NCBI GenBank assembly: GCA_019247335.1
Contig: JAFAPB010000084.1
Location: 1 to 36,591, forward strand
Source of the DNA: Candidatus Kaiserbacteria bacterium
GTDB taxonomy: Bacteria; Patescibacteriota; Minisyncoccia; Phycocordibacterales; UBA2100
Direction: 5' to 3'
Length of the DNA stretch: 36,591 nucleotides
The notes below the pieces were generated by a model. It had not been told where the DNA came from. It saw only the letters and a list, made by a program, of their open reading frames with translations, and searched no databases. The translations under genes were made by a program, and so were the position numbers. This document shows, piece by piece, positions 28,685 to 36,591 of the stretch. Within the stretch, counting starts at the first letter, position 1. Each line of letters opens with the position of its first letter.

Positions 28685-28732
28685 CCCGGAACTCTAGCAT
28701 GTGCTTATTGTCGTGGTACAACGGAGCGTACA

Positions 28733-28807
28733 GGAGGTTGGCTATCAATCGCGGCGGTACCGCGATTGATCCGAGCTTACGGTGAGCCGAAGGCTCAGCA
28801 CACCTCC
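28733..28807 (+). ncRNA. Putative structured RNA (multi-stem junction) 5' of tRNA-Ser
   Basis: Closing stem GGAGGT/ACCTCC, 11-bp perfect stem ATCAATCGCGG/CCGCGATTGAT, stem TGAGCC-GAA-GGCTCA; extended -10-like TGGTACAAC just upstream. Confidence 0.4.
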
Positions 28808-28815
28808 GACCGAAG

Positions 28816-28900
28816 GGAGGGGTGGCTGAGCGGTCTAAAGCACCGGTCTTGAAAACCGGCGTGTCGAAAGGCACCGTGAGTTCGAATCTCACCCCCTCCG
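28816..28900 (+). tRNA. tRNA-Ser (TGA)
   Basis: GGAGGGG-TGGCTGAGCGGTCTAAAGC-A-CCGGT-CTTGAAA-ACCGG, long variable arm, GTGAGTTCGAATCTCAC-CCCCTCC-G. Confidence 0.96.
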
Positions 28901-28976
28901 CCCGAAGAAAGAAGTATCGGAGATATGTTGACGGTTAGACCCCCGAGGCGACGCGGGGGCTATCCATACTGCTTCG

Positions 28977-30302
28977 TTACTGCCCAAACACCCACTGAAG
29001 GACTACGTCTTGGCGTGAACGCCCGATGCACACTCCACTCTTGATTGCATAACATTCCACGTAGTGTCTGCCGTTATATGCGGTATTTTCCGGGTCATTC
29101 ATGGTCCCGTGATCAGTGATCTCGCCTCGTGGTTGCTTTGATTTGTTATCGTTCTTTACTTTCCATTTGTACAGGGTTGCTGCCGGAGCGTCATCGCCGC
29201 GTCGAAATTCAATCTGACGATCGACTTCTATCAGGCCGACCGCGTCTAATATTCTGCCCCTAAAGCCCCCATCTCTTGGAAGTACTCGTCCGATCACGGT
29301 AAATTCGTGCTCTACGAGCATCGGTATTCGCGAGTCAAAGAGATATTCTTCGGTGTCGCTGGCTCGCTCATGTTCTCCGGCTTCCAGCAAATCGGATATA
29401 TCCGCGCCGTTCTGGATGTTCTCAAGCTTGATGAGGAAGAAGTCCCTCATACGTTTGATTTGATCCTTCTGTGATTGAGTAAGACCTGAAACGTAGGCAT
29501 CTATTTTCTTGCTAGAGTCAGCGCGGTCAGGGATTTGGGGTTTTTCAATAAGCTCAGGGAGTCCGCAGAAGAAATTGAATACAGCGTCGAATATCTCAAG
29601 TCCAGGTTTTCTCTGGAAATCGCAGGTCACGGCTTGTTCGAGGTGGAAAGATTTTAGCGGAAAATCATCGTCTGCTTCTTTGCATGAAGCTCGCCAGCCC
29701 TTTATAAGCTTTACGGCTTTGCGAAAATCCTCACTGGCCTGATTCACCTGAGTCGCGACACTGATGTACCCGCGCGGATCCGATTTGATCCATGCCATCT
29801 GTCGGGATCCCTTCGACACTTCCGCAACTATGCGGCGTCTATCACTGTGAGATTTTGCGGCTATTTCCGGAACGACATACATATCGCCGCCGAATTCGTT
29901 TCTGCCGGATATGTATGCGGGTACGATATCAACGGAAAAAATCTCTTCGCCCGCATCGCTGAATACGATCGTTATTGAGTGTGTTTGTCGCCCTATTTCT
30001 ACATCGTATTGCGTAGGGTTGTCGTATTCAGATTCGAGGCGCGACTGGAGATCATTCAACGCGTCAGACGGGTCAAATGATGACGCATTCCATGCGCCGA
30101 GGATATAAAGCACATCAAGGTCGTGCAGGGGTGTTATCGATGTGAAGCGAGGATAGGATCCGATCTGAAGGCAGCTGGACTCGCCGAGGACATTCTGGAC
30201 GGATTCATAGACGGTGGATACGAAGTCTCGCTCCCTCGGTGTCGGAGAAAGGTGGTCCCGCACGTAAGAACGGAACAGCTCATTGATGTTACTTTTTTTC
30301 AT
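28977..30302 (-). CDS. cGAS/DncV-like (SMODS/CD-NTase) nucleotidyltransferase with C-terminal AGS-C-like domain
   Basis: Pol-beta motifs QIGSYPRFTSITPLHDLDVL (GS..DxD) and SVDIVPA; SDPRGY, VKLIKGWR, LKSFHLE; C-terminal YKWKVKN..PRGEI..E.TAYNGRHYVECYAIK.GVC matches my recollection of AGS-C. Confidence 0.85.
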   Translation of the reverse strand: MKKSNINELFRSYVRDHLSPTPRERDFVSTVYESVQNVLGESSCLQIGSYPRFTSITPLHDLDVLYILGAWNASSFDPSDALNDLQSRLESEYDNPTQYDVEIGRQTHSITIVFSDAGEEIFSVDIVPAYISGRNEFGGDMYVVPEIAAKSHSDRRRIVAEVSKGSRQMAWIKSDPRGYISVATQVNQASEDFRKAVKLIKGWRASCKEADDDFPLKSFHLEQAVTCDFQRKPGLEIFDAVFNFFCGLPELIEKPQIPDRADSSKKIDAYVSGLTQSQKDQIKRMRDFFLIKLENIQNGADISDLLEAGEHERASDTEEYLFDSRIPMLVEHEFTVIGRVLPRDGGFRGRILDAVGLIEVDRQIEFRRGDDAPAATLYKWKVKNDNKSKQPRGEITDHGTMNDPENTAYNGRHYVECYAIKSGVCIGRSRQDVVLQWVFGQ

Positions 30303-30807
30303 AGCCTGTAGTGATCATGCTGACGACAATATCGTTCAGAAGGCGACCACGAAAATTATTCACTACGACATTGCGCTTTTTTTCGAGCGCATGCATGACA
30401 GGCTGCGGTATGAATCCGTGCTCTTGGGGCGCGTACACGATCAGAGCGGTGCTGTCTTCTTTGTGGGCGAGTATTTTCTCCATGTCGTCGTTATCTTTCC
30501 AGTCGGGCCAGTAGACGAGAAATAGGCTCGCTTGCTCGGCGATCCCGAGATCGCTTTCGCTCGGGATTTTCAGAATGTTAGTGCGGTTGAAGAGTTTGGA
30601 GTCATGCAGCATGTTCTCAAGTCCGATCAGCGCATCGCCTTTAGCGATGATGGCTATTTTGCGCTTCCACAGCCCATTGCCGAGCCGTATAAGGACAGGG
30701 ACGAAGCCACGGAAGCAGAGGACCGTCGCTACAATCGCCGACAGGATAACGATCACCGTGCTTATGTATCCCAGGACGTTCAGTACTTCTAAAATGGTGT
30801 CGAGCAT
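30289..30807 (-). CDS. N-terminal TM plus small Rossmann-like domain; putative CBASS-type effector/partner (NARF-like)
   Basis: Hydrophobic residues ~5-40, then alternating beta/alpha (KIAIIA, LFLVYW, ALIVYAP, NVVVNNFRGRLLNDI); overlaps the CD-NTase start by 14 nt. Confidence 0.65.
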   Translation of the reverse strand: MLDTILEVLNVLGYISTVIVILSAIVATVLCFRGFVPVLIRLGNGLWKRKIAIIAKGDALIGLENMLHDSKLFNRTNILKIPSESDLGIAEQASLFLVYWPDWKDNDDMEKILAHKEDSTALIVYAPQEHGFIPQPVMHALEKKRNVVVNNFRGRLLNDIVVSMITTGYEKK

Positions 30808-30820
30808 AATTCTTAATGGG

Positions 30821-31612
30821 CTAGTTGATATCGGCCGCCACTTTCTCGATCAGCGCACTCAGCGACGCGCGATCCAAAGTGATGATTTTTTTCGTGCCAT
30901 AAGCGAGGTTCAGCTCCTTCATCAAGGTGCGTATGCTTTCGCGGGACTGAGCGAATTTCTTATTCTTCCCGAGGAAGTCCAGCACCGAGATCAGGACGCG
31001 GTTAGAGCGGCCCATGGCGCGTTCAAGGACCTGCTGATAGATATCCTGCGTTGAAAGCAGTACGCGGGTGTAATAGTAAGGATCTTTGTTCTTCAGGTCT
31101 CCGAAAAACTCAGGGTCTGACTCCCATGGTGCGTACGTCAGATGCGCTGCCCACCAAAGACGCGCGATAGCATGGCGGCGCAGATCGCGGTCGTTACCGC
31201 TTATGAACCAGTGTTCGAGTAGATAATTTATCGCCTTTGTCTTTTCCGCCGCATCTTTAAGATCCTTGTACGTTCCGTCGAGTCCCCAGCGTACGAGCGA
31301 ATACTTCCTGAATTCGACGTGGCTGAGATAAACCCAAAGGCGCGGATCCGATGCTTGCGTCTCATCAAGATTGCGATAGTGCTCATAGAGCGTAATCGCA
31401 TTATCTATGTCAGCTGATACGGGGTCGCTCTTCGGAGCTTTTAAGACCGGCGCTTTTGTCTGGAGCACGATAGTGGAAGGCAGAAGCTCTTTTTCTTTGG
31501 CCGGAAAAGATTCTTTGAAGTAGCTCTCAAGGGAAGCACCCGAGCGCAGCTCGTTCCGCATGTGCTCGACTACGTCGCGCCTATATATCTTCTGTGCAAG
31601 AGGTTTAGTCAT
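30821..31612 (-). CDS. DUF6339-like protein
   Basis: D.DNAI.LYE..L...QASD.RLWVYLSH..Y...RW..RHAIARLWWAAHLT; family recognised from memory. Confidence 0.7.
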   Translation of the reverse strand: MTKPLAQKIYRRDVVEHMRNELRSGASLESYFKESFPAKEKELLPSTIVLQTKAPVLKAPKSDPVSADIDNAITLYEHYRNLDETQASDPRLWVYLSHVEFRKYSLVRWGLDGTYKDLKDAAEKTKAINYLLEHWFISGNDRDLRRHAIARLWWAAHLTYAPWESDPEFFGDLKNKDPYYYTRVLLSTQDIYQQVLERAMGRSNRVLISVLDFLGKNKKFAQSRESIRTLMKELNLAYGTKKIITLDRASLSALIEKVAADIN

Positions 31613-32447
31613 AGATTTCATCGTCTGACATGCTGGTAAGCGTATCGATGCCCTTCAGGCTGCGGGTAGCCGGGTTATCGAGTATCCTCTGTGCCGCTTC
31701 GAATTCGTCCTTGTCCTCAAGGCTTTTTGCTTCGAGGATGGCAGCCAGTCGCCCGTACCAATTTGCTCCCTCATAGTCGGTCGAGTTTCTGATCTTGTAG
31801 ATAGCATCTACAAGCGTCGGGAAGACGATAGAGCCGTGCAGGATGCCTTGGGCAGCTTTCTGTCCGCGAACTTCAAGGTAATTTTTCCAGTCCGCCTTGG
31901 AGAGTACGACGGTTATTTTTTCCTGATCGTAATCTATCTGCATCGGCCCCTCATGGTGGAAGCCTTCGGTAATCGACATGAATGACGATACCGGCGGACG
32001 GAGAGGATCGAAGCTCTTCTCTGCGACGAAAGACGAGTATCCTCCGACCGCCAGCACGTCTCCGGCATCTACATCGAACGTCGCGCCTTCGTAATCAGCA
32101 TGCGGTTCTGTCGGCCGGTATCCTTTAATGTCTTGATCAGCGCAGATATAGAATCCGACCGTGACTCTTTCGCGCAGGGACTTTGCCGGTATGGAGAAGC
32201 GCTCGTTGGCGTTGCGCGTAGAAAAGCTCTTGCGGAAGAAAGTGCTTCGGCACTCTACTTCAGCAATGAACGACGCCCTTCCTTTTTTAATCAGCTCCTC
32301 GATGCCTGAATTTTTAAGTCCGAACGTAGGATTGAGGATGACTTCTTCTCTCCCAAGCTCGTATGGAAACTCCACTTTGAAGAATCCTCCGAGGTCGTCC
32401 CCGTTGCCGAGCACAGGATGAGGATATGATTTCGAATTAACCTTCAT
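31605..32447 (-). CDS. Hypothetical protein (N-terminal YPHPVL motif; beta-rich N-half, helical C-half)
   Basis: 280-aa ORF overlapping both neighbours; no catalytic motif recognised. Confidence 0.8.
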   Translation of the reverse strand: MKVNSKSYPHPVLGNGDDLGGFFKVEFPYELGREEVILNPTFGLKNSGIEELIKKGRASFIAEVECRSTFFRKSFSTRNANERFSIPAKSLRERVTVGFYICADQDIKGYRPTEPHADYEGATFDVDAGDVLAVGGYSSFVAEKSFDPLRPPVSSFMSITEGFHHEGPMQIDYDQEKITVVLSKADWKNYLEVRGQKAAQGILHGSIVFPTLVDAIYKIRNSTDYEGANWYGRLAAILEAKSLEDKDEFEAAQRILDNPATRSLKGIDTLTSMSDDEIYD

Positions 32448-34311
32448 AGTTTTCTATTCCGAGCGTGTATTTCCGGCTAGAAGAGAGGCGCACAACGATC
32501 TTAACCGCCTTGCCGCTCTCTATGACAAGCCCCTTGATAAGAGAATCGCCGATTTCGTACCGCTCTCCTGACTTAACATCTGTCGCGGATTCAATCTCTA
32601 TCGGATAACTGCCGTCATCGCCGACCGCGACAAGCCGGATTGCTCCTTCGCAATCTTCGCGCCCGGTGATAGCGAGGAGGTATTCAAGGCCTTTCTTGCT
32701 GCTCTGCGCGAAGCTGCGAAAGCTGATCGATGAAGTGCTGATGCGTGCACCTTCTTTTCCTTCTCCTTCCGGTCCAGTAGCGCGGCCACGTGGTCCCTTA
32801 CCGGGGCCTTCGGGCGGCGTTGGTGTGACTGCGCCTTGCTGCTTGTTTGTAACGACGCTCTTTCTGATAACGGTTTCTATTTCTCCGTTCTCCGCGTCTT
32901 TGTCTGCGCCGATTTCGCGTCCCGATTCCTCGCTGCTCGAAAGCCCCGTCTCTTCATATGCTTCCCCGAGATTCGAGGGGAGATAGTCGCGGTCTTCGCT
33001 GTCTGGTAGGTAGCGGTCCAGACCCGGAATGTCCTGTGGCTCGCTCGTGAGCGAATCTCCCATGCTTTTGAGGGATTTTTTCATAAAGATATCCAGCTCT
33101 CGCAAAGCGACGGGGCCGGTCGCAGCGCGATCCTTATCCCACTTATCGTGCTGCGGGGGTTCCAAATCGCGCAGGAGTTCGTTGCCGCGATCGTTATCGC
33201 ATATCATCACGCCAGCATAGGGTTCTCTGAGCACGCGGTAGGCTTTTTCCTGCACTACCATCTTGGGCTTGCGAGCCATCATGACGCGCCCTGGGTAGCT
33301 GTCGTCTTTGCGGACCCACAAAGTGACTTTTCCTAGATGCTTCAGTTCTTCCTCGAAAGTGCTGCTTGGATTAGTAACTGCTTCGTAGAAGCATCGCGCA
33401 TCCTGCGCGTCGTATTCTTCCAAACACTTGCGCAGGGTGTCTTTTGTGATGCGGATATCCGAGCCGTCGCGCACTATCACCTCCAGCGTGCCGTGGTGTA
33501 TCGCAAGCCAGAAGTTGTCGAGCACTGACCGTATGAGTTTGTGCTCCCAATCTCCTCCGGATTTGTAGCCAAGTACGAAGATGTCGGTGCCTCGCTCTTC
33601 TCGCTTGAACATCTGTGGAACGAGGCTGCTTTTCCGCACAGCGTTGTATCCGTTGATTCCGTAGAAGCCGATTCCGCGACGCACATCGCGCTCGTCATCA
33701 TGATGGCTTACGAGGCGGGCTTTTCCTTGAAAGACCAGTTCGTTCTTGTCGTTGATGCTGGAATAGAAGACTGTGCGCAATGCAGACGCTGCAATCGGAG
33801 CACCTTTGCCGATTCCGAACGAGCCGCCCTTCACTCCTTTGGGAGAGCTGGTGCCCGCGGCTTTGACGAGGCGGTACCAATTGCCGTTAACATCGTCGTC
33901 GGATCCGAAAAGTCCCTTTGTATTGAAATCGCTTATCTTCAGTATCGGTATCGTCTTGCCTTTAAGAAGTGAGATGGCAGCTTTGAAAAATATCTCGGCT
34001 TTCTCTTGTCCTTTTACAAACGCGAGGCAGCGGCTCATGCGGCTAGCAAGCTCTTCATGGCCCGGAATAGTGGAGGTCGGTACAGAAAGCTTTTCGAACA
34101 CCACAGTTACCGGTGTGTCGTAGTCCAGGCGCGCATCGACCGCGTTCTGGATCGCCTCACGGGCTATGAAACGCTCGTGGTCTCCTTGGAAGTATTCAAG
34201 CTGCGAATCTGCGAAGCCGTCGTTCTCTCCGTGATCCGTCGTCGGAAAGTACCAGCACAGCGCGTCTGCGCTCTTTTTCTGCGATGCCGGCGCTTTCTTC
34301 TTTTTAGCCAT
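32437..34311 (-). CDS. GHKL (Hsp90/MutL/MORC/sacsin-like) ATPase-domain protein, 624 aa
   Basis: N-box REAIQNAVDA, G1-like ISDFNTKGL, G2 GSFGIGK, G3 RGTDI; EPPQHDKW; acidic and Pro/Gly-rich linker, then a beta-rich C-terminal domain. Start ATG 34311. Confidence 0.8.
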   Translation of the reverse strand: MAKKKKAPASQKKSADALCWYFPTTDHGENDGFADSQLEYFQGDHERFIAREAIQNAVDARLDYDTPVTVVFEKLSVPTSTIPGHEELASRMSRCLAFVKGQEKAEIFFKAAISLLKGKTIPILKISDFNTKGLFGSDDDVNGNWYRLVKAAGTSSPKGVKGGSFGIGKGAPIAASALRTVFYSSINDKNELVFQGKARLVSHHDDERDVRRGIGFYGINGYNAVRKSSLVPQMFKREERGTDIFVLGYKSGGDWEHKLIRSVLDNFWLAIHHGTLEVIVRDGSDIRITKDTLRKCLEEYDAQDARCFYEAVTNPSSTFEEELKHLGKVTLWVRKDDSYPGRVMMARKPKMVVQEKAYRVLREPYAGVMICDNDRGNELLRDLEPPQHDKWDKDRAATGPVALRELDIFMKKSLKSMGDSLTSEPQDIPGLDRYLPDSEDRDYLPSNLGEAYEETGLSSSEESGREIGADKDAENGEIETVIRKSVVTNKQQGAVTPTPPEGPGKGPRGRATGPEGEGKEGARISTSSISFRSFAQSSKKGLEYLLAITGREDCEGAIRLVAVGDDGSYPIEIESATDVKSGERYEIGDSLIKGLVIESGKAVKIVVRLSSSRKYTLGIENYEG

Positions 34312-34312
34312 A

Positions 34313-34528
34313 TTAAAGTTTGAACTCCTTATCGCGGTTAGGGAAGCTGAACTTCGCTTTGGCCTCGCGCAGCTTCTTCTCCACTTCGGAAAAGATCTTG
34401 GCCACCTCTTCTTCGGTGTAATCATAGTGGCTGCGGTTGCCGCAGTTGCCGAGGATTTTGATCCGGCGAAGGAGTTCGTTGGTCCGCTTCGCAGCCAGCC
34501 TTTTAAAATTATCTCTTCGGTCGTCCAT
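34313..34528 (-). CDS. Small basic helical protein (71 aa), first gene of the operon; possible regulator
   Basis: RRDNFKRLAAKRTNELLRRIKILGNCGNRSHYDYTEEEVAKIF; own promoter upstream; 1-nt gap to the ATPase gene. Confidence 0.8.
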   Translation of the reverse strand: MDDRRDNFKRLAAKRTNELLRRIKILGNCGNRSHYDYTEEEVAKIFSEVEKKLREAKAKFSFPNRDKEFKL

Positions 34529-34537
34529 ATACGTCCG

Positions 34538-34567
34538 AATATATCATAGGCTGTTAAAATATGTCAA
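34538..34567 (-). promoter_or_regulatory. Sigma70 promoter TTGACA-N18-TATATT (extended TG) for the six-gene operon
   Basis: Minus strand TTGACA (34567-34562), TGaTATATT ending at 34538, 9 nt before ATG 34528; AT-rich upstream. Confidence 0.65.
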
Positions 34568-34610
34568 ATAGAGCAATATCTACACAAGAAACGCCTATAT
34601 TGTATTGAAA

Positions 34611-35018
34611 TTAAGGCTTAAGAAAGCGCTGTATTCTCGCTAGAGTCTGCTCGGGCTTTTTTACGAGTTCGTGGCCCCATACGCGCATGACCTTCCAGCC
34701 TTTCCTGCGGAGCGCGCGGCGATTCTTTGTATCTCTCGCGATATTGGATGCGATTTTTTCCCGCCAGTACTCTCTCGGGATTCGCCGACGCCATTGATCA
34801 AACTTGTAACCGTGCCAGAAATCGCCGTCGATGAAGACGGCGATTTTCTTTGAAGGGACCGCGATATCTGGTTTGCCGGGCACCTTGGAATAATGCCGCT
34901 GGAAGTGAATCCTATTCTTTCTGAGATGGGAGAATACTTTTTTCTCTATGCCCGTATTCTTCGCGCGTATGAGCGACATGATTTCGCTCCGCTTTTCCTT
35001 CGTGAATACATCGGCCAT
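34611..35018 (-). CDS. vsr: Very-short-patch repair endonuclease
   Basis: MADVFTKEKRSEIMSLIR..NT..E..PGKPDI..VFIDGDFWHG..W..KI..N..RD..L...GW.V.RVW. Confidence 0.95.
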   Translation of the reverse strand: MADVFTKEKRSEIMSLIRAKNTGIEKKVFSHLRKNRIHFQRHYSKVPGKPDIAVPSKKIAVFIDGDFWHGYKFDQWRRRIPREYWREKIASNIARDTKNRRALRRKGWKVMRVWGHELVKKPEQTLARIQRFLKP

Positions 35019-35022
35019 GGCC

Positions 35023-35991
35023 TCATGACTCTAATGCAATTCTGATATTTTCTGCGATACGCGAAATCACCGGAACGGTCACGGAGTTGCCGACCTGTTT
35101 ATAGAGATGCGACTTCGCTTGATTGGTAGGAAATTTGAATGATTCTGGAAAACCTTGCAGTCTTGCGCACTCGCGGGGCGTCAGTCTCCTGACTCCTTTT
35201 GCATCTCGAATGAGCGGTACGTTATGGCCTCCTGCCCCCATGCTTGCAGTCAGAGTCGGGGCCATGCCGTTCTTCAGTTCTCGCACGTAGATCCTGCGGT
35301 ATTGGTAAAAGCTATCGCGATTCTTCACGGCTTTCTTGATTCGCGTGTAGATTTCGCCGAATCTTTCGTCATAGTAGTGTTCGTCATCCACGTTCTTTTC
35401 GAGTATGTGGGACATTTTCTTCGTAAGCGGAATCTTGTCTGGAAAACGGAATTTCATAAGCGTTCTCGGAGATCGGAATGCAACGATATATATTCGCTCG
35501 CGGTTCTGCGGCACGTTGCCATGCGTCATGCTGTTCATTACCTCCGCCTTCATGTGGTACCCGGCTTTCAGCAGCTCTTCCTGTATGCGCTTGAACGTCT
35601 TTTCGTCGTCGTGATTTTTCAAGTGTTTTACGTTTTCGAGGAATACCGCCCGTGGCTTTCTCTTCTTTAGGATCTCGATGACATTAAAGAGTAGGTTGCC
35701 TCTGTTAGCGTCAGCAAATCCTTTTTTATTTCCCGCGACAGAAAAGGGCTGGCAAGGAAATCCTCCGAGGAGGATGTCGAATTTTTTGGGTATCTTCTTC
35801 ATGCCTCTTTCCGCCGTTACTTTGATCAGGCTCGTGTCGTCGATTTCTCCGTAGTTCAGCCGGTATGTCGCAGCTGCGTTTTTATCAAAATCGTTAGAGT
35901 AGATGGTCTCAAAGCCAGCCGACTCGAAGCCGATGCGAATACCGCCGATGCCGGCGAAAAGATCTATTGCCTTCAGCTTTTTCTGATTCAT
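35023..35991 (-). CDS. dcm: C5-cytosine DNA methyltransferase
   Basis: Motifs I FAGIGG, IV GFPCQPFS, VI ENV, VIII QNRERIY, IX RRLTPRECARLQGFP, X YKQVGNSV; start ATG 35991. Confidence 0.96.
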   Translation of the reverse strand: MNQKKLKAIDLFAGIGGIRIGFESAGFETIYSNDFDKNAAATYRLNYGEIDDTSLIKVTAERGMKKIPKKFDILLGGFPCQPFSVAGNKKGFADANRGNLLFNVIEILKKRKPRAVFLENVKHLKNHDDEKTFKRIQEELLKAGYHMKAEVMNSMTHGNVPQNRERIYIVAFRSPRTLMKFRFPDKIPLTKKMSHILEKNVDDEHYYDERFGEIYTRIKKAVKNRDSFYQYRRIYVRELKNGMAPTLTASMGAGGHNVPLIRDAKGVRRLTPRECARLQGFPESFKFPTNQAKSHLYKQVGNSVTVPVISRIAENIRIALES

Positions 35992-36001
35992 AGTCGGTAG
36001 G

Positions 36002-36591
36002 CTAATTATAGCGGGTTTCAATGTTTTCCGCTGCGGGGACATCTATGGTGACTATGCCCCTAGTAATCTTGATCTTCGACCTGAAGCATCCCATCAACTC
36101 CCGCTTCTCCTGATCCGTCCCTTCCTTTAGCGTGTATTTCGCATAGGTTCGTAGATCCACTTCTTCGTGCGCTGTTTTTGACCCAGAGAATCCGAGCACA
36201 CCGCGCTGGAACTTATTGAACCGTCGCAGCTCCTCCTCGAACTTGTGCTGCATGCCCAGATTGTTGAAGTCGATCTGATCGAGTGCCTGTATCAGCTGGT
36301 CGACCAGTTCTTCTTCGCGCAGATATGTGTTCTTGCAGTGCAGATCGCGCGCGCGACCGCACCCATAGTAGATGTACTTCGCCATGGTGCCATCCTTCAG
36401 TTGCTTGTACTTCTCTTCTGCGCTGAACATCGATCCGCATAGACCACAAGTGATGAGCTTCGTGAACGAGAACTCATGCGTCTGCCGCACGATGCTGTCG
36501 CGTTTCAACTGTTCCTGCACCTTGTCGAACAACTCCTTGGAAATCAATGGTTCGTGCTTGCCGTTGTACCAGTTGCCGCTCTTCTTCGGGA
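36002..36591 (-). CDS. Large serine recombinase (C-terminal part; 5' end outside the window)
   Basis: Frame open to the window edge: WYNGKHEPLISKELFDKVQ (end of recombinase domain), Zn ribbon CGLCG..YYGC..C, terminal EKRELM..KI.I. Confidence 0.9.
   Translation of the reverse strand, partial: PKKSGNWYNGKHEPLISKELFDKVQEQLKRDSIVRQTHEFSFTKLITCGLCGSMFSAEEKYKQLKDGTMAKYIYYGCGRARDLHCKNTYLREEELVDQLIQALDQIDFNNLGMQHKFEEELRRFNKFQRGVLGFSGSKTAHEEVDLRTYAKYTLKEGTDQEKRELMGCFRSKIKITRGIVTIDVPAAENIETRYN

Follow-up and report, generated by a model that had tools for sequence, protein, structure and literature searches.

A type I CBASS operon of a Candidatus Kaiserbacteria genome pairs a CD-NTase–AGS-C cyclase with a single-helix membrane effector whose receiver-like domain probably detects cyclic tri-AMP

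Introduction

Type I CBASS is by definition without Cap2 and Cap3. An AGS-C domain was reported for about 40% of type I CD-NTases in one source (bioRxiv 10.1101/2023.05.21.541620), which also describes clades C and D of type I as lacking AGS-C fusions, and for about 30% in another (bioRxiv 10.64898/2026.10.06.757031), which describes Asn372, Gly403 and His405 (N...G-x-H) of DancE as essential. Membrane proteins are given as the largest class of CBASS effectors, at over 40% (PMC12480259), and the PADLOC models for CBASS are described as built from the loci of Millman et al. (2020; PMC8565338).

Outside CBASS, Cam2 was presented as the structural prediction of a cA3-sensing TM-REC protein; in the same account it is described only in CRISPR loci (26 loci) and reported to co-occur with NucC and SAVED-CHAT, NucC being described there as activated by cA3 (Hoikkala et al., 2024; PMC11229360).

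The window analysed here is the whole stretch of 36,591 nucleotides from the forward strand of a Candidatus Kaiserbacteria contig (JAFAPB010000084.1). An earlier note on this DNA had described an atypical CBASS-like pair with an uncharacterised membrane effector. We identify the locus as an operon of type I CBASS, set within a defence island next to tRNA-Ser, and compare both of its genes with their relatives in other genomes.

Results

Organization of the locus

The effector gene was found to come first and the cyclase gene downstream:

28977..30302, minus strand: CD-NTase–AGS-C cyclase gene, an ORF of 441 aa with its ATG at 30302
30289..30807, minus strand: gene of the upstream "1TM" effector, an ORF of 172 aa whose TAA ends at 30289
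30289..30302, minus strand: overlap of effector stop and cyclase start, 14 nt, read from the sequence

The cyclase ATG sits 14 nt inside the upstream ORF, as the earlier note had read it, and the cyclase match also begins before the effector match ends in 21 of 31 related loci (tblastn). On one side the pair is flanked by tRNA-Ser and a cation-efflux gene. On the other side it is packed directly behind three PDC-M33 genes on the same strand, with Vsr, Dcm and a recombinase further on. Pfam and PADLOC searches of the five genes at 28977-34425 gave no match to the HORMA/Trip13 (type III) or QueC/TGT/OGG (type IV) accessory models, and the reported absence of Cap2/Cap3, SAVED, patatin and STING held in the same searches. 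No histidine kinase was found near the locus. Searches of the 861-kb assembly gave neither Cas10 nor NucC nor another cyclase, which leaves this cyclase as the single generator found there. A type III CRISPR-cas setting was not found for the window's effector copy, which adjoins a CD-NTase in an assembly where Cas10 was not detected.

The locus thus combines a SMODS cyclase and a catalogued adjacent effector with no accessory genes of types II, III or IV, which is the composition of type I CBASS. The label "atypical" is not justified, since type I lacks Cap2/Cap3 by definition and AGS-C fusions make up some 30–40% of its CD-NTases; besides, both proteins gave full-length matches to PADLOC CBASS models (PDLC00785 and PDLC00664). 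The pair is an ordinary type I CBASS.

The cyclase

The cyclase matched PDLC00785 with residues 1–436 on model positions 1–442/443 (1.7e-191, 635 bits). The Pfam searches proposed earlier placed both families above their cut-offs, SMODS at 28.3 bits (cut-off 26.5) and AGS_C PF18134 at 52.7 bits (cut-off 26.7; 5.6e-14; residues 329–434), and the SMODS+AGS_C architecture was retained among the homologues listed. Two parts of the protein were delimited:

29928..30161, minus strand: catalytic stretch with G48-S49, D61, D63 and D125, from the translation and the alignment to PaCdnD
28995..29330, minus strand: all-beta AGS-C domain, residues about 325–436, from Pfam PF18134 and the model

The catalytic residues had been called intact, and G48-S49, D61-x-D63 and D125 were indeed present and invariant in 40 homologues; they align with GSYARYT, DID and VSVDAVP of P. 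aeruginosa CdnD. The C-terminal motif noted from the sequence corresponds to W380, V382, N384, R392-G393, I395, E405, G411, H413 and C417, all invariant in the same 40 homologues, including the set N384, G411 and H413. In the AF2 model (mean pLDDT 89.8), seven strands make up the AGS-C part from residue 328 to 436. The best Foldseek matches were P. aeruginosa CdnD (6p8u, E 3.7e-12) and E. coli CdnC (6p80), followed by cGAS. As AGS-C fusions are reported to be absent from clades C and D, these nearest solved structures would not be clade-mates of the cyclase. The NCBIfam equivalog CBASS_cyclase_b (NF041117) was matched at 97.4 bits, under its curated cut-off of 200; the cyclase is a relative of this group and lies outside its membership.

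The membrane effector

The effector matched PADLOC "Effector 1TM" PDLC00664 over model positions 12–174 of 174 (8.7e-60, 200 bits) and the type III CRISPR accessory model "C3a59" PDLC01057 over positions 1–167 of 167 (1.8e-51). The CBASS matches of cyclase and effector (635 and 200 bits) are strong and beyond chance. The effector family is thus a recognised one, catalogued as PDLC00664 and PDLC01057. A further match, to PADLOC Mem_04 (a type III operon membrane protein, possibly a diverged CARF), was weak (2.8e-6). No Pfam or NCBIfam family matched the effector, the receiver family PF00072 giving no match at E<=0.1. Relatives numbered 860 at E<=1e-3, and the phage collection gave no relative of the effector. 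The NARF family to which the partner had been tentatively assigned was not found in the literature searched, nor was the combination of NARF, nucleotidyltransferase and Rossmann. Literature on Rossmannoid, SMODS and transmembrane gave, among the papers listed and judging by titles and abstracts, nothing about this protein, and no bench data on the single-TM effector family were found in the literature searched. Three segments were recognized:

30709..30783, minus strand: transmembrane helix, residues about 9–33, poorly conserved, from Kyte-Doolittle hydropathy and the model
30664..30708, minus strand: juxtamembrane helix G-x-x-P-x-x-x-R-L-G-N-G-L, residues 34–48, from conservation
30292..30663, minus strand: REC (receiver)-like alpha/beta domain, residues 49–172, the proposed cyclic-oligonucleotide sensor

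The single-TM alpha/beta organization read earlier was recovered by both methods: Kyte-Doolittle gave one hydrophobic segment (peak at 18–36, score 2.49), and the model (mean pLDDT 89.6) showed a long helix of residues 2–48 followed by a five-stranded alpha/beta domain. Residues 9–32 carry no charge, acidic residues precede them and R33, R41 and K48-R49-K50 follow, which suggests an N-out, C-in topology with the receiver-like domain in the cytoplasm.

The REC-like fold was recovered by VIA-align only. Foldseek gave no PDB match to the effector model at E<=1e-3; its best, weak matches were the N-glycosidases MilB and DNPH1 (E 1.1e-3 to 8e-3, TM about 0.45–0.5), not receivers, and no CARF or SAVED entry was among the structural matches shown. 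One hit of the A1 profile against PDB sequences, the AI-designed TIM barrel 7mcd (3.6e-7, three short stretches), was rejected as a beta-alpha repeat artefact. A three-copy prediction from alignment A1, run without controls, scored 0.14 and 0.01, the mark being 0.42, and is neutral on oligomerisation.

Genome neighbourhoods

Eighty effector loci were collected with the pattern NFRGRLLND and two others, and the family was found to adjoin CD-NTases in 63 of them, in five kinds of CD-NTase context and with at least four different cyclase families, and type III CRISPR genes in eight (Cas10, Cas6, Csm3/4, Cmr6, RAMPs). Fourteen loci were unresolved at first, and 49 of 77 ORFs from them were sent to PADLOC. 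In nine loci (L008, L032, L039, L050, L055, L061, L064, L071 and L072) the partner was not identified; in five of the nine, no more than about 1 kb of contig follows the effector on its downstream side. On the effector tree the partner classes are mixed with one another, and the CRISPR label requires six changes, at least two of which are forced by well-supported branches.

According to the earlier note, lack of co-conservation of the upstream gene would speak against the pair. Co-conservation was seen both ways: a cyclase immediately follows the effector in 31/80 genome loci, and a 1TM effector directly upstream of related cyclases in 65/72 assessable metagenome loci. The latter count combines 57 of 80 cyclase loci found by tblastn with eight divergent members found by HMM (six tested directly, two judged by their 84–85% identity to a tested one), and the 72 are the 80 loci minus eight without upstream DNA.

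The receiver-like domain as a sensor

The key effector residues were identical across all partner classes, and G34, P37, R41 and G43 were invariant in 81/81 family members of every class, an invariance partly built in, as the 80 loci had been found by NFRGRLLND and two other patterns. In the unbiased set (112 cluster representatives and the window), only R41, N151, G154, R155, L156 and D159 were kept at 90% or more, R41 in 92%. A putative ligand face was assigned to W100, D102, Y125, N151, R153, R155 and D159, placed by secondary structure and not by coordinates.

Two cluster representatives of the family keep the sensor domain with the TM helix replaced, in P0249 by a TIR domain (Pfam TIR_2, 1.4e-11) and in P0178 by a TIR-like domain (PADLOC CBASS TIR effector, 4.8e-7). 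A search for longer sensor fusions led to one protein, P0390, which was dismissed as such and taken to be a read-through that joins part of a cyclase to an entire effector. P0169 (RT fragment and sensor) may also be a gene-call artefact. The CD-NTase and CRISPR contexts shared by the family, the interspersed partner classes, the TIR swaps and the common key residues argue for the small alpha/beta domain being the sensor.

The ligand

In four of the 80 cyclase loci, NucC (E 1e-83 to 2e-105) was found directly upstream in place of the 1TM protein. Cyclases paired with NucC branch from among those paired with 1TM (three changes, all forced by supported branches); cyclases of the NucC-paired locus L104 and the 1TM-paired locus L093 are 82% identical over 444 aa, and the window's cyclase shares 57% identity with one that is paired with NucC. 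That NucC swaps in on the same cyclase points to cA3 as the ligand, and, NucC being cA3-activated, to cA3 signalling with membrane disruption as the putative outcome here. The CdnC/CdnD enzymes, closest to this cyclase among solved structures, belong to HORMA/Trip13 systems and make cA3, and cA3 is where Cas10 products and known CD-NTase products overlap. From these observations the receiver-like domain probably detects cyclic tri-AMP. In the CRISPR locus L047 the effector has a CARF-RelE type protein as neighbour; such proteins answer to cA4, so cA4 is possible for CRISPR-linked members.

Discussion

Proposed mode of action

We read the locus as a type I CBASS in which cA3 from the cyclase is bound by the receiver-like domain and the membrane effector fires, and give this reading somewhat better than even odds (roughly 55%). 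The two-gene signalling system proposed earlier stands as a co-conserved pair of a CD-NTase–AGS-C and a TM protein with a Rossmann-like domain (flavodoxin/REC-type); its designation as atypical does not. From comparative genomics, the cyclase would make cA3 upon phage infection, which the AGS-C domain possibly senses. The cA3 would bind at the Arg/Asn/Asp/Trp-rich face at the strand ends (W100, D102, Y125, N151, R153, R155, D159). On the pattern of Cam1, Csx23 and Cap15, and in line with the prediction for Cam2, binding could be relayed through the juxtamembrane helix (P37, R41, G43), the membrane helices would change their packing or oligomeric state, and the inner membrane would be permeabilised or depolarised, so that the infected cell may stop growing before phage release.

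Alternative explanations

The same architecture might answer to a signal other than cA3, such as c-di-AMP, cGAMP, cUA, cAAG or another trinucleotide, or cA4. DancE, the single AGS-C CD-NTase examined in depth, makes mainly c-di-AMP, the products of the four or more cyclase families that pair with the effector may differ, and the neighbour in L047 would fit cA4. REC domains mostly function in dimeric form, and a dinucleotide with two-fold symmetry would match this. This is nevertheless an unlikely alternative, if the most serious one, as NucC takes the effector's place beside cyclases that share up to 82% identity, the residues of the putative ligand face are alike between partner classes, and the eight type III CRISPR loci depend on Cas10, which makes oligoadenylates, not mixed dinucleotides. 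We consider it improbable that the alpha/beta domain is instead a membrane-anchored enzyme, a nucleotide N-glycosidase or NADase (nucleoside 2-deoxyribosyltransferase/TIR-like) that depletes a metabolite; MilB and DNPH1 as best structural matches would agree with this, the conserved acidic and aromatic residues D102, Y125 and D159 could serve catalysis, and nucleotide-depleting effectors are common in CBASS.

An inverted guard logic, in which a constitutive cyclase product keeps the effector shut until phage sponges or nucleases release it, has its precedent in Panoptes types I and II, where TM effectors are described as held inactive by cA3 or cyclic dinucleotides (PMC13577387, PMC12657218). 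However, Panoptes is described as using minimal Cas10-like polymerases, not a CD-NTase–AGS-C (PMC13577387), and the same effector family occurs with type III CRISPR, where target RNA switches synthesis on, and can be exchanged for NucC, which its ligand activates; the response to the ligand would be expected to be the same throughout, and we regard the inverted logic as very improbable. Still less probable is that the pair is not autonomous and belongs to a five-gene unit with the three upstream PDC-M33 genes. The M33 genes overlap by 11 and 17 nt and are separated from the effector by a 13-nt gap, which together with the 14-nt effector/cyclase overlap makes one compact row on one strand, and the only sigma70-like site in 28700-34800 (11/12 matches) lies upstream of M33A at 34567..34538. 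The promoter scan carries little weight, since shuffled sequence led to an expectation of 4.5 sites and the scan gave one, and defence islands routinely pack unrelated systems. An M33 gene was present within about 4 kb in 0/80 related effector loci, and PDC-M33 was rejected as a component of the system.

Comparison with known systems

The operon itself is one more type I CBASS among catalogued thousands. Going beyond the cA3 reading of this operon, the receiver-like domain might be a distinct portable cA3 receptor, to be placed beside CARF, SAVED, STING, the Cap15 beta-barrel and Csx23. It would be common to type I and III CBASS and type III CRISPR (Cam2/C3a59), interchangeable with NucC on near-identical cyclases, wired to a membrane helix or a TIR, and derived from a response-regulator fold recruited from phosphorelay; we hold the chances of this wider proposal to be even. 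The hypothesis names the ligand (cA3), the receptor face (N151/R153/R155/D159) and the coupling helix (P37/R41/G43), and if true the receiver fold joins the cyclic-nucleotide immune sensors. Compared to REC domains, the effector shares the fold only: going by strand position, A55/K56, W100 (D102 following two positions later), Y125 and N151 stand where REC domains have their acidic pair, the phospho-acceptor Asp, the Thr/Ser and the Lys (the D/D/D/T/K set).

The E. albertii DancE/CdnB-Cap15 system showed a similar organization, with two genes, an AGS-C cyclase, a small TM effector with a cytoplasmic nucleotide-binding domain and no Cap2/Cap3. The N...G-x-H set of AGS-C is also found in the window's cyclase, an equivalence by motif only, unaligned. 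The differences are that DancE makes c-di-AMP and the product here is inferred to be cA3, that the effector gene here comes first, and that Cap15 is described with two TM helices and a beta-barrel (PMC11229360), compared to a single TM helix with an alpha/beta domain of receiver-like type in the window's effector. Cam1 and Csx23 are likewise described as joining one or more N-terminal TM helices to a small cytoplasmic domain that senses cyclic oligoadenylates, and as depolarising the membrane (PMC11229360); they bind cA4, through CARF in Cam1 and a distinct tetrameric domain in Csx23, neither of which was among the structural matches shown.

NucC-type CBASS draws on the same family of cyclases (identity between a NucC-paired and a 1TM-paired member reaches 82%) with the effector gene directly upstream, but its effector is a soluble nuclease that degrades DNA, whereas here it is a membrane protein. 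Cam2 resembles the effector in its N-terminal TM helix and C-terminal REC-like domain, a likeness drawn from the architecture and the PADLOC C3a59 model. Cam2 is described from CRISPR loci alone, whereas the effector family is mostly CBASS-linked (63/80), and the comparison ties the CBASS "1TM" effector, the CRISPR accessory C3a59 and the Cam2 architecture together.

Cyclase and Effector Genes

On sequence and model grounds, the window was shown to encode a catalytically complete CD-NTase with a C-terminal AGS-C domain and a co-conserved partner, a membrane protein with a receiver-like domain inferred to be cytoplasmic.

28977..30302, minus strand: CD-NTase-AGS-C cyclase, ORF, 441 aa
30289..30807, minus strand: "1TM" effector, ORF, 172 aa

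The cyclase ORF starts 14 nt before the end of the effector ORF on the same strand; ORF coordinates, hydropathy and the AF2 model agree with the overlap with an upstream single-TM alpha/beta protein described in the earlier note, whose observations proved right in every particular. The profile checks proposed there (SMODS, AGS_C, PADLOC) all gave matches. The 441-aa protein matched Pfam SMODS (28.3 bits; cut-off 26.5), PADLOC CBASS cyclase PDLC00785 end to end (1.7e-191) and, at residues 329-434, Pfam AGS_C (52.7 bits; cut-off 26.7), which bears out the proposed AGS-C-like C-terminal extension; with NCBIfam CBASS_cyclase_b it reached 97.4 bits, below the 200-bit cut-off. The GS..DxD..D catalytic residues had been read as intact, and indeed those of P. 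aeruginosa CdnD (PaCdnD) aligned with G48-S49, D61-x-D63 and D125, which showed no variation in 40 homologues. The structures closest to the AF2 model (mean pLDDT 89.8) were PaCdnD (6p8u, E 3.7e-12) and E. coli CdnC, followed by cGAS. Relatives numbered 918 among 6,015 candidates, and the SMODS/AGS_C architecture was kept in those among the matches listed. By motif, N384, G411 and H413 of AGS-C resemble Asn372, Gly403 and His405 of DancE, reported as essential (10.64898/2026.10.06.757031).

The 172-aa effector matched two PADLOC models over nearly its full length, "Effector 1TM" PDLC00664 (8.7e-60) and "C3a59" PDLC01057 (1.8e-51), the latter a model for an accessory TM protein from type III CRISPR loci. 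Searches of Pfam and NCBIfam gave no family, nor did Pfam give a match to PF00072, and the strand-end residues differ from the phosphorelay set. The 860 relatives found among 970 candidates formed 248 clusters at 50% identity. The AF2 model, built from a 35-sequence alignment (mean pLDDT 89.6), showed a single long helix at residues 2-48 followed by strand-helix repeats (strands 51-54, 78-81, 95-99, 121-125 and 147-150). Hydropathy indicated one membrane segment, preceded by acidic residues and followed by R33, R41, K48, R49 and K50; by this inferred topology the globular domain should be cytoplasmic. Conservation was found in two places, the juxtamembrane helix (G34, P37, R41, G43) and the strand ends, chiefly N151-x-R153-G154-R155-L-x-x-D159, with R41, N151, G154, R155, L156 and D159 at 91-96% in 112 unbiased cluster representatives plus the window. 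The membrane helix was poorly conserved.

Partners of the Effector Family

Effector loci in genomes were sought with three peptide patterns, which led to 140 confirmed relatives; the best 80 of these were examined.

Genes next to the effector (best 80 of 140 loci)
Window-like cyclase immediately downstream: 31/80, 24 with detectable AGS-C
Short cyclase, PADLOC PDLC00803 family or weak SMODS match: 16/80
DncV-like cyclase downstream: 5/80
SMODS cyclase upstream: 5/80
AAA+ ATPase immediately upstream, putative type III CBASS-like layout: 6/80
Type III CRISPR genes (Cas10, Cas6, Csm3, Csm4, Cmr6, RAMPs): 8/80
No partner assigned: 9/80, five cut by a contig end

In a tree of 81 effectors these partner classes were intermixed, and the CRISPR label changed six times, at least two changes being forced by well-supported branches. 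Among 150 listed cluster representatives, two carried the same C-terminal domain with the membrane helix replaced by a TIR domain (P0249, 300 aa; Pfam TIR_2, 1.4e-11) or a TIR-like domain (P0178, 276 aa; PADLOC CBASS TIR effector, 4.8e-7). Since this domain is kept while both signal generator and output module are exchanged, it is best read, from such comparisons, as a sensor.

P0249 and P0178 are soluble variants of the family, as is P0169 (284 aa), where a reverse-transcriptase fragment of CRISPR-associated kind is joined to the sensor, possibly through a gene-call artefact. In three loci (L010, 2957-3583; L020, 3322-3999; L027, 3140-3757), all with DncV-like cyclases, the effector-cyclase pair is immediately preceded on its upstream side by a LexA-like gene (Pfam LexA_DNA_bind and Peptidase_S24), a hint that some such operons are under SOS-linked control. 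In a type III CRISPR locus (L047, 1351-3225) Cmr6 and a protein of CARF-RelE/CARF-DUF2103 type (1.1e-87) lie next to the effector, so a further effector, based on CARF, can be present in the same locus. One relative annotated as hypothetical protein is encoded on each of two plasmids from Gloeothece verrucosa PCC 7822 (NC_014534.1, 241086-241592; NC_014533.1, 842242-842772; 51% and 44% identity), the only ones among 72,556 plasmid records; none was found in 50,697 phage records.

Nature of the Signal

Among the best 80 of 210 metagenome loci encoding a window-like cyclase, the effector was found directly upstream in 57 by tblastn; eight had too little upstream DNA, and 15 had upstream DNA without a tblastn match. 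Eight of these 15 contain a divergent effector-family member (six tested, C3a59 matches 2e-9 to 3.6e-31; L124 and L127 judged by 84-85% identity to L123), four have NucC directly upstream (1e-83 to 2e-105) and three gave no upstream assignment. The upstream gene is thus co-conserved with the cyclase (57 plus 8 of these 80), as the earlier note's reading required. A tree of the cyclases was built from 68 rows, the window and 67 loci, after omission of 13 loci whose cyclase was incomplete. In it the NucC-paired cyclases, four in all, occupied three places among 1TM-paired ones, with three partner changes, all forced by supported branches. The window cyclase fell into a supported 18-row group containing three of the four, and showed 57% identity to NucC-paired L131; NucC-paired L104 and 1TM-paired L093 share 82% identity over 444 residues.

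In two loci (L103, 1499-4305; L148, 1506-4305) one NucC gene is flanked by two cyclases, in the order short cyclase (PADLOC PDLC00803, ~254 aa), NucC, window-family cyclase with AGS-C; the short family is also the 1TM partner in 16 of the best 80 of 140 effector loci.

NucC is reported as a nuclease activated by cyclic tri-AMP (cA3) and used in CBASS and type III CRISPR (PMC11229360). For Cam2, a TM and REC-like protein of 26 type III CRISPR loci, the same paper predicts cA3 binding and notes co-occurrence with NucC and SAVED-CHAT. Taken together with the NucC swap, this makes cA3 the most economical reading, and we give a probability of about 0.6, from sequence comparison, that cA3 is what this cyclase family produces and what the receiver-like domain detects. 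Against it count the c-di-AMP reported for the AGS-C cyclase DancE (10.64898/2026.10.06.757031) and locus L047, where the effector is paired with a protein of CARF-RelE type. A signal other than cA3 is unlikely. An enzymatic role of the receiver-like domain is considerably less probable, and a Panoptes-like inverted logic slightly less so again. Dependence of the pair on the neighbouring PDC-M33 genes has the smallest chance, as none of these was found in the best 80 of 140 effector loci. No Cas10, NucC or second cyclase able to feed or share the signal was found in the assembly.

Under the cA3 reading, infection would switch on the cyclase, and the receiver-like domain would bind cA3 at its Arg/Asn/Asp/Trp face. 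The change would be relayed by the conserved juxtamembrane helix to the membrane helix, and the membrane might be depolarised or permeabilised, by analogy with Cam1, Csx23 and Cap15.

Genomic Surroundings of the Pair

The window is an entire 36,591-bp contig of an assembly of 861,556 bp in 89 contigs (G+C 57.7%). G+C is 57.3% before tRNA-Ser(tga) and 51.2% from there to the contig end (28950-36591). On the pair's strand the upstream gene order is PDC-M33 C, B, A, Vsr, methylase, recombinase.

28816-28902, plus strand: tRNA-Ser(tga), island boundary; the pair begins 75 nt away
30821-34425, minus strand: three genes of PDC-M33, a PADLOC candidate defence system
34611-35018, minus strand: Vsr, upstream of PDC-M33
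35023-36042, minus strand: Dcm-type C-5 cytosine methylase
36002-36589, minus strand: large serine recombinase, C-terminal part, cut by the contig end

The pair sits in a defence island, which probably lies within an integrative element. A second contig (C60; L081, 5000-10965) breaks off within a serine recombinase, after its N-terminal 263 aa, and the last 6 kb of this contig are of low G+C with an N6/N4 methylase and a Mutator-family transposase; the two contig ends have only 10 nt in common, and their join is a candidate.

All PDC-M33 genes, on the minus strand, were recognized by PADLOC: C (266 aa; also Pfam DUF6339, 4.7e-42), B (280 aa; 1.4e-59) and A (662-aa ORF; 1.1e-139, match from residue 57). 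Neighbouring genes of the three share 11 and 17 nt, and a 13-nt gap separates them from the effector. M33A gave no Pfam family; we take its N-terminus to read like a GHKL ATPase N-box (E-x-x-x-N-A-x-D). Upstream of it lies a sigma70-like site (34538-34567, minus strand; TTGACA, 18-nt spacer, TATATT, TG extension, 11/12 matches), the only one in 28700-34800, so the five genes could be one transcript; one site against 4.5 expected from shuffles carries no statistical weight.

Comparison with Known Systems

The "NARF" partner family named in the earlier note left no trace in the literature searched. Nor did that literature contain a link of the CBASS 1TM effector to Cam2/C3a59, although an earlier statement of it may exist, or experimental work on a TM-REC effector from CBASS. 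The earlier note's label "atypical" is best dropped. PADLOC CBASS models are reported (PMC8565338) to be built from the loci that Millman et al. (2020) catalogued, so both gene families already counted as CBASS. By definition, type I CBASS consists of a cyclase and an effector, with no accessory genes (10.64898/2026.10.06.757031), and AGS-C fusions are reported in ~40% (10.1101/2023.05.21.541620) or, by a second estimate, ~30% (10.64898/2026.10.06.757031) of type I operons. The operon is thus an ordinary CBASS of a kind already known, within which the effector poses a sharply testable question.
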